DNA from: Candidatus Spongiisociaceae bacterium
Lineage (GTDB): Bacteria; Actinomycetota; Acidimicrobiia; Spongiisociales; Spongiisociaceae
DNA: 64,000 nucleotides
Direction: 5' to 3'
Assembly (NCBI GenBank): GCA_965219685.1
Contig: CBDCOH010000002.1
Location: 4,326,482 to 4,390,481 of the forward strand
The first letter of the stretch is position 1. Every line of letters begins with the position of its first letter. This document shows positions 38,817 through 46,654 of the stretch, piece by piece. The notes below the pieces were generated by a model. The model ran no database searches and had not been told where the DNA came from. It saw only the letters and a program-made list of their open reading frames with translations. The position numbers and the translations under genes are program-made.

Positions 38817-39578
38817 ATGAAGATCGTCCGCATGCAGACCCCGGAGGGGATTCGCTATGGAGGCGTCGAGCCCGAGGGGATCCGGATCCACGACGGGACG
38901 CCGTTCGTCGCCTGGCAACCGACCGAGGTGGTCATCTCATTCGAGCAGGCCCGGCTCCTAGCACCGGTCTTCCCGACCAAGGTGGTGGGGGTCGGAGCCA
39001 ACTACGTTCTCCATGCCGAGGAGATGGGACGCCGCCTTCCCGACACGCCCAGCATCTTCATCAAACCGTCCACCGCGGTGATCGGACCCAGCCAACCGAT
39101 CGTGCTCCCCGCCCTGTCGAACGAGGTGCATCACGAAGCCGAACTCGCGGTGGTGATAGGCAAGGTCGCCCGCAAGGTGGCGGTCGAGGACGCTTCCTCG
39201 GTGGTGCTCGGATACACCGCGGGCAACGACGTGACCGCCCGGGATCTCCAGCGGGAGGACGGTCACCCCAGCAGGGCCAAGGGCTTCGACACCTTCTGCC
39301 CGCTGGGCCCGGCCATCGAAACCGAATACGACCCGCTCGAGGACTTCTCGCTCGAGTGCCGGGTCAACGGCGCCATCAGGCAGGGCTCCTCGATCAACGA
39401 CATGATCTTCGGCGTGGCCGAGCTGATCTCCTTCATAACGTCGGTCATGACGCTGCTGCCCGGCGATGTGATCATGACGGGAACGCCTTCCGGGGTAGGG
39501 CCGCTGAGGAGCGGCGACCTGGTCGAGGTCACCCTGGAAGGGGTCGGTACTCTCTCCAACCCGGTGGTGGCCGAATGA
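38817..39578 (+). CDS. Fumarylacetoacetate hydrolase family protein
   Basis: HEAELAVVIG, NDVTARD, KGFDTFCPLGP, TGTPSGVG; usual neighbour of gltX. Confidence 0.93.
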   Translation: MKIVRMQTPEGIRYGGVEPEGIRIHDGTPFVAWQPTEVVISFEQARLLAPVFPTKVVGVGANYVLHAEEMGRRLPDTPSIFIKPSTAVIGPSQPIVLPALSNEVHHEAELAVVIGKVARKVAVEDASSVVLGYTAGNDVTARDLQREDGHPSRAKGFDTFCPLGPAIETEYDPLEDFSLECRVNGAIRQGSSINDMIFGVAELISFITSVMTLLPGDVIMTGTPSGVGPLRSGDLVEVTLEGVGTLSNPVVAE

Positions 39579-41041
39579 GCGCCGAGCAGGTGCGCCTGCG
39601 CATCGCCCCGTCGCCCACCGGCTACCTGCACATCGGGAACGTGAGGGCGGCCCTGTTCAACTGGCTGTACGCCAGGCGCCACGGCGGGGTGTTCATCATC
39701 CGCATCGACGACACCGACCAGGCCCGGTCCGACGATCGCTACATCGATGACGTGGTGGAAGGGTTCCGATGGCTCGATCTGGACTGGGACGAGGGGGTCG
39801 CGGTGGGGGGGCCGCACGGGACCTACCGCCAGTCCGACCGCTTCGCACGCTACCGCGACGTGGCGGAGCAGTTCCTCGATGCGGGCCGGGCCTATCACGA
39901 CTTCCGGCCGGCGGGGGAACTGGACGAACTCCGGGCGCGGGCCCGCCGGGAGAAAAAGCCGCCCGGCTACTACATCCGCCGCCCCGCCGCCAGCGATCCC
40001 GAGGAAGGGAGGCGCCGGATCGAGGCGGGAGAGCCGGGGGTCGTCCGCTTCTCGACGGCGGGCCAGGCGGTGGAGTTCACCGATCTCGTACGGGGTGAGA
40101 TCCGGTTCGAGCCGGATGCCATCGACGATTTCGTGATCCTGCGGTCGGACGGGTCGCCCACCTACCACCTGGCCTCGACGGTGGACGACATCGACTACCG
40201 GATCACCCATGTCGCGAGGGGTGAGGATCTCCTGTCGTCGACCCCCAAGCACATCCTGATGACCGAGGCCCTGGGAGGGGAACGTCCCGTATACGCCCAC
40301 CTGCCCTTGCTGTTCGGGCCGGACGGACGGAAGCTCTCCAAGCGCCACGGCGACACCGCGCTGCGCGCCTACCGGGAGGGCGGCTACCTGCCCCAGGCGG
40401 TGTTCAACTACCTGGGCCTGCTGGGGTGGTCCCTCGACCCGGACAACGAGATCTTCGGACGGCAGGAGGCGATCGAGGCCTTCGAGCTGACCGACGTCCA
40501 GAAGAGCCCGGCGGTGTTCAACCCCGAGAAGCTGGGCTGGATGAACGGCGTCTACATGCGGGCCATGCCTCCCGAGGACTTCGCGGATCTCGCCGTCGGT
40601 GCCGTCGAGGAGGACCTAGGCCGCGTCTTGGACGATGACGAGAGAGGACGGCTGGCCGGACTGGCGCCGCTCTTACAAGAGAGGACCAAGCTGACCACCG
40701 ACATCCCTCCCGCGGCCCGTTTCCTGTTCGCCGGGATCTCCTACGACGAGAAGGCCTGGCGCAAGGTGATGAAGGTGGACGCCCCGCGAGCCCTCGCCGC
40801 GGTCCGGTCGATGCTCGAAGCTCTCGAGGATTGGAATGCGGAGGAGATAGAGAAGGCCCTCCGGGCGATGCTGTCCGCCGAGAGCCTGAACCCCCGCAAG
40901 GGCTGGCAACCGATCCGGGTGGCGATCACCGGCTCCAACATCTCGCCACCCCTGTTCGAGAGCCTGGAGGCACTCCCCAAGGAGGTCGCCCTAGCCAGGA
41001 TCACTGCTGCCTTGGAGCGCCTGGGCGCGGCGGGCAGTTGA
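39575..41041 (+). CDS. gltX: Glutamate--tRNA ligase
   Basis: APSPTGYLHIGN, RGEDL, KLSKR. Confidence 0.96.
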   Translation: MSAEQVRLRIAPSPTGYLHIGNVRAALFNWLYARRHGGVFIIRIDDTDQARSDDRYIDDVVEGFRWLDLDWDEGVAVGGPHGTYRQSDRFARYRDVAEQFLDAGRAYHDFRPAGELDELRARARREKKPPGYYIRRPAASDPEEGRRRIEAGEPGVVRFSTAGQAVEFTDLVRGEIRFEPDAIDDFVILRSDGSPTYHLASTVDDIDYRITHVARGEDLLSSTPKHILMTEALGGERPVYAHLPLLFGPDGRKLSKRHGDTALRAYREGGYLPQAVFNYLGLLGWSLDPDNEIFGRQEAIEAFELTDVQKSPAVFNPEKLGWMNGVYMRAMPPEDFADLAVGAVEEDLGRVLDDDERGRLAGLAPLLQERTKLTTDIPPAARFLFAGISYDEKAWRKVMKVDAPRALAAVRSMLEALEDWNAEEIEKALRAMLSAESLNPRKGWQPIRVAITGSNISPPLFESLEALPKEVALARITAALERLGAAGS

Positions 41042-41077
41042 CCCACGACATCTCCGCGGGGACGCCGCAGGCGGGGC

Positions 41078-41148
41078 CGAAACGCAGAGGCTCGCCACCA
41101 AGGGCGAGCCTCGCACCCAGCCACCGAAGCGAACTGGGGGGATTACTT
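41078..41148 (-). ncRNA. Candidate structured small RNA divergent from the NYN nuclease gene
   Basis: Minus-strand promoter TTGTAT-17-GATACT, a C(UUCG)G-capped hairpin, then a 10-bp perfect hairpin with a short U-rich tail. Confidence 0.55.
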
Positions 41149-41222
41149 ACGCAGAAGTATCGCACAAGTGTGACACAGATACAAATGTGTTTGTACGATA
41201 GCTAACGTACAATTGCAGCTCT

Positions 41223-41849
41223 ATGGCGACGATCGTCTACATAGACGGGCTCAACTTTTACTACGGTGCCGTTAGGGGGACCCCCTACAAGTGGCTGGAC
41301 TACCAGGCACTTTGCGCTCGGTTGCTCCCGCGCGACCAGATAGCGAAAATACGCTACTTTACGGCGCGGGTCACCCCTCTACCCCATGACGCGAGCGCGC
41401 CGGCTCGCCAGGGCACTTACCTACGCGCCCTCGAAACCCTTCCGCTTGTCGAGATTCACTACGGCCACATTGTCACCAGAACCCGGAGACTGCCGTTGGC
41501 CACGCCGAACCCTGGTAGCCCTCGGACAGTGGAAGTGCTAGCGACCGAGGAGAAGCGAACCGACGTGAACATCGCTAGCTACCTGCTCCTCGACGCTTTC
41601 ACCGGTGCATGTGATACGGCGGTCGTTGTCTCGAATGACTCGGACCTTGCTGAGGCTATTGACATCGCCAGGAATGTTGCCGGAATCAAAGTGGGGGTGG
41701 TGAATCCACACCCTGCCCGACACCGCTCACGACACATGTCGGCCACCTTTTTCAAGCAATTGCGCCACGGGATTCTTCGCCAGTGCCAACTCCCCCATGT
41801 GGTCCACGACGCTGCGGGAAGGGCAATCCGGAAACCGGCCACGTGGTAG
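41223..41849 (+). CDS. NYN domain (LabA/DUF88, PIN-like) nuclease
   Basis: VYIDGLNFYYG, IRYFTA, EEKRTDVNIA, VSNDSDL. Confidence 0.9.
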   Translation: MATIVYIDGLNFYYGAVRGTPYKWLDYQALCARLLPRDQIAKIRYFTARVTPLPHDASAPARQGTYLRALETLPLVEIHYGHIVTRTRRLPLATPNPGSPRTVEVLATEEKRTDVNIASYLLLDAFTGACDTAVVVSNDSDLAEAIDIARNVAGIKVGVVNPHPARHRSRHMSATFFKQLRHGILRQCQLPHVVHDAAGRAIRKPATW

Positions 41850-41873
41850 CACCCCGGTACCGATGTCCGTCGG

Positions 41874-43106
41874 TCAGCCGAGAGCGAAGTCGAGGGCCTC
41901 GATCAGCCGGTCGATCTCCTCCTCCGTCGTGTAGTGGATGAACGACATCCGTAGCACACCCGGGGAGGTGGGTATGCCCATATCATCCAGCAGGCGGGGC
42001 GCATAGAAGTCGCCAGTCCCGACCATCATCCCCTCGGCGACGAGAGACTTCGCCAGGTCCGGCACCGGCCGCTTCAACGGGACGATCGACACGGTGGGTG
42101 CTCGACGGTCGGCGTCGATGGGGCCGACAACCCGCACGTCGTCGCGGCCGGCCACGTACGCAAGCAGCCGACGGAGCAACCGGGTCTCGTGGGTCCGGAA
42201 CATGTCGTGGACCATCCGACCCCGCTCCACCGGCGAGGCATCCATGCCCCCGTGGTGGGTGTACAGGTCGTCCAGATAGTCGACGATACCCGCGCACGCG
42301 GCTACCTGGGCATGGTCGGGTCCGGCGGGAACCAGCTTTGACCGGGGCTCGTCCGCCACGAAGTAGTGACCCTCGTTCCCGAGGCGGTCGGCCAGGTCGC
42401 GGCGGACGAACATCACTCCCTGGTGCGGTCCCCACGTCTTGTAGGCGGAGAACAGGTAGACGTCCACCCCGAGCGCCCCGATGTCGGGCAGGCCGTGCGG
42501 TGCGTAGGAGACCCCGTCCACAACGACCCGGGCGCCGACCGCGGAGGCTCGGGCGATGACCTCCCTGACCGGGTTGACGGCCGCCACCACGTTGGAGGCA
42601 TGGGGGAAGGCCACCAGCCGGGTGCGTCCGGTGATCAACCGGTCGAGATCGGCCAGGTCCAGCGTTCCCTTCTCCGGGTGGACGCGCCACTCCCGGACCG
42701 TGATCCCCGTAGCCTCCAGTCGCCTCCACACGCCTGCGTTGGCCTCGTGGTCCTGGGTGGAGGCGACGATCTCGTCCCCGTCTCGCCACATCGAGCGGAA
42801 CGCCCTCGCCAGCACGTAGGTGTTCTGCGAGGTCGACGGGCCGAAGTGGATCTCGTCGGTTCCCACACCCATCCAGGCCGCCAGGCTCCGGTAGGAGCGT
42901 TCCATCGCCTCGGCGGCCCGCATCGAAAGAGGGAAGGGATGGTCGGGCTGGACCTTGGTGTGGCGGTAGAAGTGGGTGAGACGGTCGATCACCTGTCGGC
43001 ACACGTAGGACCCGCCGGCGTTCTCGAAGTGTGCCCATCCCCGGAGACGAGGATCGGAGAAAGCGGGAAACTGGCTGCGGGCGTAGTCGGTGTCGAGGGG
43101 CCCCAG
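41874..43106 (-). CDS. Class V aminotransferase / cysteine desulfurase-like protein (apparent CTG start)
   Basis: LDTDYARSQFPAF...FENAGGS N-terminus, DHEAN, VDGVS, SAYKTWGPH; RBS GGAGG 5 nt before CTG. Confidence 0.88.
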   Translation of the reverse strand: MGPLDTDYARSQFPAFSDPRLRGWAHFENAGGSYVCRQVIDRLTHFYRHTKVQPDHPFPLSMRAAEAMERSYRSLAAWMGVGTDEIHFGPSTSQNTYVLARAFRSMWRDGDEIVASTQDHEANAGVWRRLEATGITVREWRVHPEKGTLDLADLDRLITGRTRLVAFPHASNVVAAVNPVREVIARASAVGARVVVDGVSYAPHGLPDIGALGVDVYLFSAYKTWGPHQGVMFVRRDLADRLGNEGHYFVADEPRSKLVPAGPDHAQVAACAGIVDYLDDLYTHHGGMDASPVERGRMVHDMFRTHETRLLRRLLAYVAGRDDVRVVGPIDADRRAPTVSIVPLKRPVPDLAKSLVAEGMMVGTGDFYAPRLLDDMGIPTSPGVLRMSFIHYTTEEEIDRLIEALDFALG

Positions 43107-43232
43107 GGATGCCTCCGTTGATGGCTGAGATGCCCGAGTTTGCCAGATCGGGATGGTTCTAGACGGAAGCGGCCGGCGATATGCCGGACTCTGCTGTTCG
43201 GGGTCGCTCGCCTCCGATCCGAGCGCGCGGAT

Positions 43233-43646
43233 TCAGGAGCGTTCCAGCACGACGACCGGGATGACCCTCAGAGTCTTGGACTCATAGTCCTCGAACTGGG
43301 GATAGTCGCTCTTCTGCCGGGTCCAGATCCGGTCCCGCTCCTCGCCCTGGGCGACACGAACCTGCACGGGAACCGTCTCGGTGCCGACCTCCACCTCCGT
43401 CCGGGGATTGGCCACCAGGTTGTGGTACCAGTCGGGATTGTTGTCGGCCCCGCCCTTGGAGGCGAAGATCGCATAGCCGGTAGGCACCTCTTGGTACATG
43501 AGCGGGCTGACCCGACCGATGCCCGTTCGGGCGCCGACATGGTGGAGGAGCAGGAGGGGACTCCCTTCGAACATGCCGCCCACCCGGCCGCCGTTGGCGC
43601 GGAACTCCTCTATTACGGTCTGATTCCAGTCATTCCATTTGCTCAC
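43233..43646 (-). CDS. F420H2-dependent nitroreductase-family (Ddn-like) oxidoreductase
   Basis: IEEFRANGG, ASKGG..NPDWYHNL.ANP, IPVVVLER. Confidence 0.92.
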   Translation of the reverse strand: MSKWNDWNQTVIEEFRANGGRVGGMFEGSPLLLLHHVGARTGIGRVSPLMYQEVPTGYAIFASKGGADNNPDWYHNLVANPRTEVEVGTETVPVQVRVAQGEERDRIWTRQKSDYPQFEDYESKTLRVIPVVVLERS

Positions 43647-43777
43647 GCGTCACTCCCGTCTTCGTCTCGCCGCAAGGGCGGGTTCACGTTCTCGCCGATG
43701 ATGGCACGGTCCCGCAACAACCGAATGCACTACCGGGGACTGCCCTCCAAGGCACGAGAGCATGGAGCTGCGGGGAC

Positions 43778-44014
43778 CTACTCGACGGTGGCCATATCGC
43801 GATGGTGGCCTCCGTGGCGTCCCTCGATGTGAGCGATGCTCCTGCCATTGGCGGCGACTTCACGGGTCAGGTCGCGCAACTGCTTGCGCATGTCGCGAAA
43901 CTGAGCGTTGATCTGTTCGAATTGTCTGTCGATCCGTTCGAATCGTTTGTCGATCTGGTCGAATCTCCGGACCTGAGACCGCCATAGCATCGTACCGATG
44001 GCGACCAGGATCAC
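43778..44014 (-). CDS. Small TM + coiled-coil protein, possibly a decaying gene
   Basis: RFDQIDKRFERIDRQFEQI heptads; in-frame TGA four codons upstream of the GTG. Confidence 0.55.
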   Translation of the reverse strand: MILVAIGTMLWRSQVRRFDQIDKRFERIDRQFEQINAQFRDMRKQLRDLTREVAANGRSIAHIEGRHGGHHRDMATVE

Positions 44015-46235: not shown

Positions 46236-46309
46236 GGCCCCGTCGTCCAGCCGGCCTAGGACGCCGGCCTTTCAAGCCGGAAACGCGGGTTCGAATCCCG
46301 TCGGGGCCA
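46236..46309 (+). tRNA. tRNA-Glu (TTC)
   Basis: GGCCCCG/CGGGGCC acceptor stem, CCGGC-CT TTC AA-GCCGG anticodon arm, GGTTCGAATCC; TAGAAT -10 upstream. Confidence 0.95.
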
Positions 46310-46654
46310 CAGCTACAGCGGGATGTTCGCCACTAATTGGCTGTGATGTTCGCCACTTAGCCGCTGAGGGGGTTGCAGGCGCCGGTCTTGGGGTGTTCGG
46401 GCGGTGCCGGGTGGTGGTTCAGCTGGTTTCGCGGTGGGGTGGGATGGTTTTGCCGGCCCGGGGTGGGCGATGTTCGGGACGTGGCGGGTCGGACCCTTCC
46501 GGGTTGCCGCGTCGTGGGGTTAGGCAGCCTGGGGTGGTGCCCTGCTGTGCTGGTTCGGGTTGTGTTCCGCTGGTAGCGGCGAATGTTCGACGGTTGCCTC
46601 GGTGATGTGTGGGGTGTGTTCGAGTGTACTGGTGGGTCGGGTCGAGTGTGGGTG

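Follow-up and report, generated by a model that had tools for sequence, protein, structure and literature searches.

A predicted small structured RNA gene linked to a family of stand-alone NYN nuclease genes

The subject of this analysis is a two-gene module in a stretch of 64,000 nucleotides (nt) from the genome of a Candidatus Spongiisociaceae bacterium (contig CBDCOH010000002.1). This stretch is called the window below, and all positions refer to it unless another sequence is named. We analysed the region made up of gltX, a spacer, an NYN gene and an aminotransferase gene. The NYN gene (41223-41849, plus strand) encodes a stand-alone, single-domain NYN/PIN-like nuclease of 208 amino acids (aa), and a gene for a small RNA (sRNA) is predicted on the minus strand of the 181-nt spacer that separates it from gltX. 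Comparison of sequences establishes the RNA element with its structure and the sequence signals for its transcription, and shows that it is linked to NYN genes tightly, specifically and in a mobile fashion. The NYN family is already known as a domain and as the candidate HEC-09, but apparently neither its RNA partner nor the fact that the module has two components has been described. The reading we favour, to which we give roughly an even chance, is that the RNA binds and restrains the nuclease in the manner of a type III toxin-antitoxin (TA) system, with a new toxin fold and a new RNA.

The small-RNA gene and its conservation beside NYN genes

Read on the minus strand, a -35-like hexamer TTGTAT (41179-41184) and a -10-like hexamer GATACT (41156-41161), 17 nt apart, form the predicted sRNA promoter. 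The predicted sRNA of about 70 nt (41079-41148) consists of a 5' AAGUAAUCCCCCC leader, two hairpins (P1 and P2) and a short U tail; its probable ends are 41148 and 41079. A run of six C residues (CCCCCC, 41136-41141) contributes its 3' half to the base of P1, while its 5' half is unpaired. P1 (41116-41138), CCCAG-U-UCGC(UUCG)GUGG-CUGGG, is the element specific to the family. P2 (41084-41114) has a perfect 10-bp stem (41087-41112) plus two pairs around a bulged U, and the short U-rich tail GUUUC (41079-41083) comes after it; P2 is possibly the terminator of the sRNA, and possibly a bidirectional one. A 75-nt minus-strand stretch folds into exactly P1 and P2 (-35.9 kcal/mol, z -3.24), and none of 200 shuffled sequences folded as well. 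A first-pass annotation of this DNA had placed the promoter and both hairpins on the minus strand, and they are present there as placed, the promoter at 41184-41156. The RNA is present as a single unit without tandem direct repeats, and none of the Rfam 15 covariance models matched the element at E<=10 in a search of 39000-44000.

The sRNA promoter is weak by consensus, and a sigma-70 scan returned only a plus-strand GTGACA-18-TACGAT. A terminator scan of the window did not call P2, because the U tail is short: the stem is strong, but only UGCGUUUC follows it on the minus strand. Since the consensus scans list neither promoter nor terminator, the case is weak on the window sequence alone.

Comparison with relatives strengthens it. 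In the related genome G013, the gltX-NYN-aminotransferase locus is syntenic, with about 80% nucleotide identity throughout, and within it the 69 nt from 41079 to 41147 are 100% identical. Both promoter hexamers are kept as well, with substitutions only in the spacer. The identical block starts 9 nt past the -10 hexamer and ends in the U-rich tail, and therefore coincides with the predicted minus-strand transcript; this is consistent with the self-contained unit of about 70 nt that had been proposed. Of 41 related genomes, 15 encode relatives of the NYN protein, frequently with more than one copy per genome. Their flanks carry the same module in both orientations: a C run, a hairpin with a UUCG-type loop, a GC-rich hairpin and (C/U)GUUU.

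Six copies of the sRNA were used to construct a covariance model, R1. The source genome contains two strong R1 matches (E 4.6e-23 and, for the window sRNA, E 3.6e-17), each adjoining one of the two genes of the NYN subfamily; the other five PF01936 matches in this genome have no adjacent R1 match. Two weaker matches, at positions 561617 (E 8.8e-4) and 1875083 (E 0.017) of the genome sequence, are GC-rich and coding-like, have neither promoter nor tail, and were treated as chance. Among 151 genomes of the order, 28 contain an R1 match.

The hairpins could be ordinary signals, that is, a gltX terminator beside an unrelated promoter-like sequence, next to NYN by chance. The base of P2 lies 43 nt past the gltX stop codon, and P2 is a near-perfect palindrome that folds on both strands; a second role as gltX terminator is possible. 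As an account of the whole element, however, we consider the probability of this explanation close to negligible. The 69 nt are identical in G013 against flanks of about 80% identity, the only two strong copies in the source genome both stand at NYN genes, and the motif occurs beside NYN in many phyla with no gltX nearby. The first-pass annotation had named hairpins persisting after gltX in relatives that lack NYN as the mark of a simple terminator; downstream of gltX, none of five same-genus relatives has an R1 match.

Public genomes supplied a set of 80 NYN loci, with representatives of Acidimicrobiia, Solirubrobacterales, Pseudonocardiaceae, Streptomyces, Chloroflexota/Dehalococcoidia, Acidobacteriota, Verrucomicrobiota, Gemmatimonadota, Planctomycetota, Saccharibacteria, Erythrobacter, Caulobacteraceae, Alphaproteobacteria and others. 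An R1 match was present at 72 loci at E<=1e-3, at 67 at E<=1e-5 and at 78 at E<=1. The two loci without a match are a diverged copy that can be read by eye (L121) and a contig end with 48 nt upstream of the gene (L110). In 20 of the NYN loci, the Rfam 15 covariance models gave no match at the element at E<=1; the motif is thus new to Rfam 15, a point that the first-pass annotation had left to be checked. Clustering of open reading frames (ORFs) of at least 60 aa recovered NYN in 80/80 loci and, antisense shadows aside, no other ORF family in more than three; two clusters were antisense shadow ORFs inside NYN. The lack of a protein partner, noted in the window, thus extends to the homologous loci.

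In 52 of the 72 loci the RNA lies upstream of NYN on the same strand, in 13 it is convergent and downstream, in six it is divergent and upstream as in the window, and in one it is placed inside the gene end. The divergent orientation described in the first-pass annotation therefore holds for the window and not in general, the same strand directly upstream being the commonest position. Five of the 80 loci have two tandem RNA units upstream. Where RNA and NYN share a strand, only about 10-30 nt separate the end of the terminator stem from the start codon, frequently a TTG; NYN would therefore be made from read-through transcripts.

This proximity, same strand and directly before the start codon in 52/72 loci, is what one would expect of a cis-acting leader or attenuator of the NYN mRNA (a site for autoregulation by NYN or for a ligand) that is not a separate RNA. 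We nevertheless regard this explanation as quite unlikely. In 19-20 of the 72 loci, including the window, the element is inverted or downstream and so outside the NYN mRNA, yet promoter and structure are kept, with the -10 box at a fixed distance in all three arrangements. Inspection of the alignment by eye revealed no conserved alternative pairing between P1 and P2 of the riboswitch-like or anti-terminator kind, and orphan copies of the RNA persist (see below). Because the inverted and downstream arrangements keep promoter and structure, the RNA probably acts in trans.

The RNA family alignment comprises 89 rows. A TANNNT -10 box is located 4-9 nt before the conserved first A in 63/89 copies, compared with 10.6% of shuffled controls, and 44 of these 63 also have TTG at -35 distance; the GATACT of the window is itself not a TANNNT match. 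The conserved A is followed by UCCCCCC, and CCCC is found in the 5' part of 82/89 copies. After the C run come P1, a 2-nt linker, P2 with a conserved GAG...CUC base, and a U-rich tail (at least five U in the 12 nt after P2 in 70/89 copies). The C(UUCG)G tetraloop of P1, which had been pointed out in the window, is present there and in 48/89 copies, and so is not a general trait.

All 18 modelled pairs change on both sides (eight of eight in P1, ten of ten in P2), in 264 alignment cells; 90.9% of cells are paired, and 96% in P2. None of 500 column shuffles reached any of the five covariation measures. When the partners were slid by 1-3 columns, the score fell from 0.529 to 0.045-0.087, with 5-10 pairs and 15-36 cells remaining. 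A covarying two-hairpin motif that travels with NYN independently of gltX, as the first-pass annotation had envisaged, is thus found across the family, on plasmids and in a prophage.

Mobility, joint transfer and decay

More distant relatives retain the design of the module with other sequences. In related genomes where NYN is 31-37% identical, a divergent sRNA gene with promoter, hairpin and terminator is present, and its P1 sequences differ. NYN relatives were found in 150 viral-contig stretches; the more distant NYN genes in viral contigs (28-45% identity) have the same layout. Among 80 viral-contig loci, R1 matched 21 at E<=0.01, and 73 had enough upstream sequence. In the 52 R1-negative loci, a hairpin followed by a T-run was found within 130 nt upstream on the same strand in 39 and on the opposite strand in seven; read by eye, these upstream regions contain promoter, C-rich start, hairpin and terminator. 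Tandem repeats upstream of the viral-locus NYN genes were limited to two short arrays, so that arrays are the exception. The loci L194, L195 and L197 have AUUAAGUU loops, similar to a loop motif of plasmid RNAs described below.

NYN relatives occur on 432 of 72,556 plasmid records (Klebsiella 203, Xanthomonas 56, Escherichia 38, and others) and in three of 50,697 phage records. In a Mycobacterium abscessus prophage (Mycobacterium phage prophiGD43A-1), NYN is encoded by gene 6, which has helix-turn-helix genes on one side and the immunity repressor on the other, and the RNA is convergent and downstream of it (R1 E 1.8e-12). A Paenarthrobacter plasmid carries the RNA at R1 E 1e-11. In NZ_AP025746.1, a ColE1-like Escherichia sp. 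plasmid of 4,612 bp that carries Rop and Mbe genes, a promoter is followed by four tandem P1-like units, then by one strong terminator and a ribosome-binding site, and finally by an NYN gene with a TTG start. Such an arrangement is known from ToxIN-type (type III) systems, and it provides the strongest hint at the function of the module. Each unit is about 33 nt long (period 33/29) and consists of a C run and the P1-like hairpin CCUGUGGC-GUG-CCGCAGG. Of 5,426 complete E. coli genomes, 10 include a plasmid of about 4.6 kb with this module. On a Klebsiella IncFIA/IncR plasmid a single unit is accompanied by a terminator, and a small Klebsiella plasmid has two units with a common GCGAUUAAGUU loop motif. 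From the arrays of units before a single terminator we conclude that P1 with the C run would be the functional unit and P2 the terminator. The GCGAUUAAGUU loop motif is common to the enterobacterial plasmid RNAs (L142, 1270-1500; L141, 1388-1488); the window RNA is without it.

The identities of the NYN proteins correlate with those of their RNAs (Mantel r 0.39, reached in 0 of 2000 permutations). The source genome also contains a second module (contig C2, 3841961-3842640), in which the RNA lies directly upstream on the same strand and NYN is 44% identical to the window NYN. Its closest relatives are three Chloroflexota loci and one Candidatus Aldehydirespirator locus (L131, L127, L129 and L123), with 74-78% identity in the protein and 83-91% in the RNA. 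Together with the Mantel correlation, these relatives indicate that RNA and protein move and diverge together.

Twenty strong RNA matches in related genomes lie in a locus that can be examined: 12 beside an NYN-profile match, six as orphans and two without NYN nearby. The 12 adjacent NYN genes comprise eight of full or nearly full length and four fragments (L028, L035, L040 and L055). All six orphan RNAs (L030, L031, L033, L034, L036 and L054) are situated between an IclR-family regulator gene and an FAA-hydrolase gene, the latter being the gene that precedes gltX in the window. The orphans are intact (E 1e-15 to 1e-21) and their promoters are kept. Remnants of the NYN N-terminus remain beside four of the six, recognized by profile in L034 and L036 and by eye in L031 and L033. 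Decay of NYN with retention of the RNA is the order expected if the RNA is an antidote. In Spongiisociaceae relatives the RNA occurs on either side of the FAA-hydrolase/gltX pair.

In the same-genus relative G005 the site occupied in the window is empty: about 45 nt separate the gltX stop codon from the end of the convergent aminotransferase gene, and this interval contains no RNA and no NYN. RNA and NYN therefore form a single insertion or deletion unit of about 0.8 kb, which in the window, with the sequence read by eye, corresponds to 41042-41873. This fits the mobile cassette proposed in the first-pass annotation, as do the patchy distribution and the cross-phylum relatives shared by RNA and protein.

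The NYN protein and readings of the module

The assignment of the protein to NYN was borne out by Pfam (PF01936, 38.6 bits against a cut-off of 24.2, E 2e-9). The PADLOC profile of HEC-09 (PDLC04163) matches it nearly end to end (E 5.1e-40, residues 4-208 on profile positions 5-202 of 203), and phrog_7929 matches at E 7.1e-56. The earlier statement that no named system could be recognized therefore stands for the RNA partner, which is undescribed, and not for the protein family, which is a PADLOC candidate. An AlphaFold2 model (pLDDT, predicted local distance difference test, 91.6) had its best Foldseek matches with LabA-like 2qip (E 5e-7) and MARF1 NYN domains (E 4e-5) at 11-17% identity; a sequence search of the PDB gave 2qip only, as a weak match. 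In an alignment of 17 family members, from which L037 was left out on account of a stop codon, the acidic residues E110, D114, D139 and D141 are invariant and D8 is nearly so. NCBIfam holds no family for the window NYN. Among 1.84 billion representatives, the family has 533 clusters at E<=1e-30, 2973 at E<=1e-10 and 5966 at E<=1e-3; in nearly all of the best 150 clusters the length is 200-240 aa. The NYN relatives on OW970225.1, OW969806.1, NZ_KY362371.1 and CP030179.1 are annotated as 6-hydroxy-3-succinoylpyridine monooxygenase/hydroxylase (HspA/nicB), which looks like a misannotation that has been carried over.

We favour the type III-like reading because the RNA is the exclusive partner of NYN, the layout is promoter, RNA, terminator and toxin, and enterobacterial plasmids carry tandem units. 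The inverted arrangements that would allow action in trans, the co-divergence of RNA and protein and the retention of the RNA after loss of NYN point in the same direction, as do the weak start codons and the multi-copy, plasmid and prophage habitats. Under this reading, an abundant sRNA would bind the NYN protein via P1 and the C run and keep the nuclease inactive. If transcription of the RNA stopped or the RNA were degraded, as might occur upon phage infection or plasmid loss, the more stable nuclease would be freed and would cut RNA of the cell and of the invader. Where the RNA lies upstream on the same strand, the commonest case, a single promoter would serve RNA, terminator and NYN, and production of the nuclease from read-through only would keep the RNA always in excess. 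In the window, the inverted RNA gene would act in trans, and NYN would have its own -10 box. Expression, binding, inhibition, toxicity and any role in defence are thus what we infer from the sequence pattern.

Several points weigh against this reading. The promoter, ends and abundance of the sRNA are predictions. Many of the 80 loci stem from metagenome bins, and related loci are not independent of one another; the 89-row alignment is model-fitted and so leans towards structure, though the margin is large. In known type III systems the antitoxin consists of tandem repeats that the toxin processes, whereas most loci here have a single RNA unit that ends in a terminator of its own; the fold of the toxin is also different. 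Neither of two strong RNA matches, L041 and L042, has an NYN gene within 1.5 kb. An orphan RNA is present in G005, where a search with the window NYN as query found no NYN of its subfamily; this orphan could have a role independent of NYN. In the part of the preprint of Payne et al. available to us, an HEC-09 representative that had been cloned together with its native promoter region failed to protect against any of the phages used (10.1101/2024.01.29.577857).

The RNA might instead be a cofactor or guide for the activity or specificity of NYN, its C-rich 5' end or P1 selecting the targets, or it might be a substrate that NYN matures or degrades. The linkage data fit any obligatory RNA-protein pair, and the 5' C run is conserved in 82/89 copies although it is partly unpaired. 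C-rich seeds that pair with G-rich ribosome-binding sites occur in other bacterial sRNAs. We consider a cofactor, guide or substrate role unlikely: the variation of the RNA is confined to the terminator loop and to compensatory stem positions, so that a variable, guide-like segment is missing; the RNA outlives the decayed NYN, which is more like an antidote than a cofactor; and the tandem units with terminator of the E. coli plasmid mirror antitoxin arrays. A related proposal, which we hold to be very unlikely, is a ribonucleoprotein (RNP) in which the RNA would do more than inactivate the nuclease: NYN would be brought to G-rich ribosome-binding sites by the conserved, exposed C-rich 5' end (CCCCCC or CCUCC) as a seed, or this end would mimic the target. 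If the RNP proposal were true, the module would be a minimal RNA-directed RNase distributed over more than 10 phyla, plasmids and prophages. It would also add to the RNA-protein toxin or defence systems a fourth class that is structurally unrelated to the others.

The start region of NYN bears on a further possibility. In the window, an inverted repeat TTGTACG-N8-CGTACAA (41191-41212, plus strand, partly kept in G013) overlaps TACAAT (41208-41213, plus strand, kept in G013), the likely -10 box of NYN, just as the first-pass annotation had described. The repeat is a possible operator for a regulator of NYN. The TACAAT box ends 9 nt before the ATG at 41223, and the window NYN mRNA is probably leaderless or nearly so. 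The C run resembles an anti-Shine-Dalgarno (anti-SD) sequence (CCCCCC or CCUCC), and the RNA could be a base-pairing regulator that blocks translation of NYN or of other mRNAs. Read by eye, many same-strand loci have a G-rich ribosome-binding site after the terminator, and several distant variants have CCUCC; the orphan RNA in G005 is also compatible with such a role. We judge base pairing of this kind unlikely. The seemingly leaderless window mRNA offers no ribosome-binding site to block, and the covariation of P1 with NYN clades is not needed for an anti-SD seed. Duplexes between RNA and the NYN start region were not favoured over those with the rest of the gene (median percentile 0.74, 0/63 below 0.1) in a test that is blind to seeds of 5-6 nt.

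Gene neighbourhood and relation to known systems

The surroundings of the module are of a housekeeping character. On the plus strand, gltX (39356-41041) encodes glutamyl-tRNA synthetase (Pfam tRNA-synt_1c, E 2.6e-91, and Anticodon_2) and serves here as context only. On the other side, a class-V aminotransferase gene, assigned from the ORF list and profile matches, lies at 41874-43004 on the minus strand, convergent to NYN. The wider neighbourhood includes gatA, gatB, the FAA-hydrolase gene and genes for tRNA-Glu and tRNA-Gln; among these neighbours, neither an Hma system nor another defence system surrounds the window NYN.

Some associations with tRNA-related genes were observed. Just 3' of NYN in two Dehalococcoidia loci, L116 (2195-2459) and L069 (2200-2465), there are T-box leaders with scores of 89.6 and 85.6, against an Rfam gathering score of 93 bits. 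A tRNA gene follows the module in L089, and the window module follows gltX. A recurring neighbourhood of the module with tRNA-related genes is possible. Elsewhere in the window, a G+T-rich stretch (46311-46640; GC skew <=0.36, AT skew to -0.65) with a recurring ATGTTCG(C/G) motif lies directly 3' of the tRNA-Glu gene (46236-46310); it may be the edge of an element integrated at that gene.

The module resembles type III TA systems (ToxIN, CptIN, TenpIN) in that the only conserved partner of a ribonuclease gene is a small structured RNA. The usual type III order of promoter, RNA, intrinsic terminator and nuclease is encountered in 52/72 loci of the family and in 39/52 distant viral loci, though not in the window. 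Some members have tandem units (four in the E. coli plasmids, two in five loci), and both kinds of system occur on plasmids and in prophages, in several copies per genome and with a patchy distribution. In contrast to type III systems, the protein has an NYN/PIN-like fold and not that of ToxN/AbiQ, the RNA is mostly a single unit with its own terminator and is often inverted, and it is a simple hairpin with a C-rich 5' flank without a known pseudoknot repeat. RNA processing, binding and toxicity are putative. In the parts available to us, reviews and a 2026 paper name only three type III families.

Payne et al. (bioRxiv 10.1101/2024.01.29.577857) described HEC-09 as a single NYN protein of MARF1-like type that lies within Hma systems. 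The main text of that preprint, taken apart from its supplements, does not contain the terms 'ncRNA' or 'non-coding'. As far as its description goes, HEC-09 shares with the window protein the end-to-end profile match and the MARF1-like NYN fold with conserved aspartates; the window copy differs in its housekeeping location and in the presence of an RNA partner.

VapBC and other PIN-domain type II TA systems also have a small PIN-like nuclease as presumed toxin and are multi-copy, mobile and found on plasmids. VapC, however, is neutralized by a protein antitoxin encoded upstream, whereas the NYN module has no conserved protein partner and an RNA gene instead. AbiF-type abortive infection, in the part of the report available to us (PMC12373285), likewise involves a nuclease-type effector for whose expression or activity a neighbouring non-coding RNA is required; the proteins belong to unrelated families, and no sequence or Rfam relation between the RNAs was found. 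LabA/VPA0982 (2qip) and the MARF1 NYN domains are the best structural matches, but at the low sequence identity given above. We know of no small RNA associated with either of them.

In the full-text literature, we found no publication in which an NYN protein is connected to an adjacent small RNA or to type III systems; bioRxiv supplements might list such a motif. The available part of a preprint on a genome language model (10.64898/2026.09.22.753630) mentions neither NYN nor PIN.

The analysis supplies an RNA family that is missing from Rfam, and the RNA partner would explain how NYN nucleases can stand alone without a protein antidote. It also provides a second, overlooked component for HEC-09, which may bear on the lack of activity of that candidate. 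The version on ColE1-like plasmids of E. coli makes the idea directly testable in a laboratory strain. If the RNA does restrain the nuclease, the RNA-protein toxin-antitoxin or abortive-infection systems would gain a new family of very wide distribution, in which a PIN-like NYN toxin is combined with a simple hairpin RNA.

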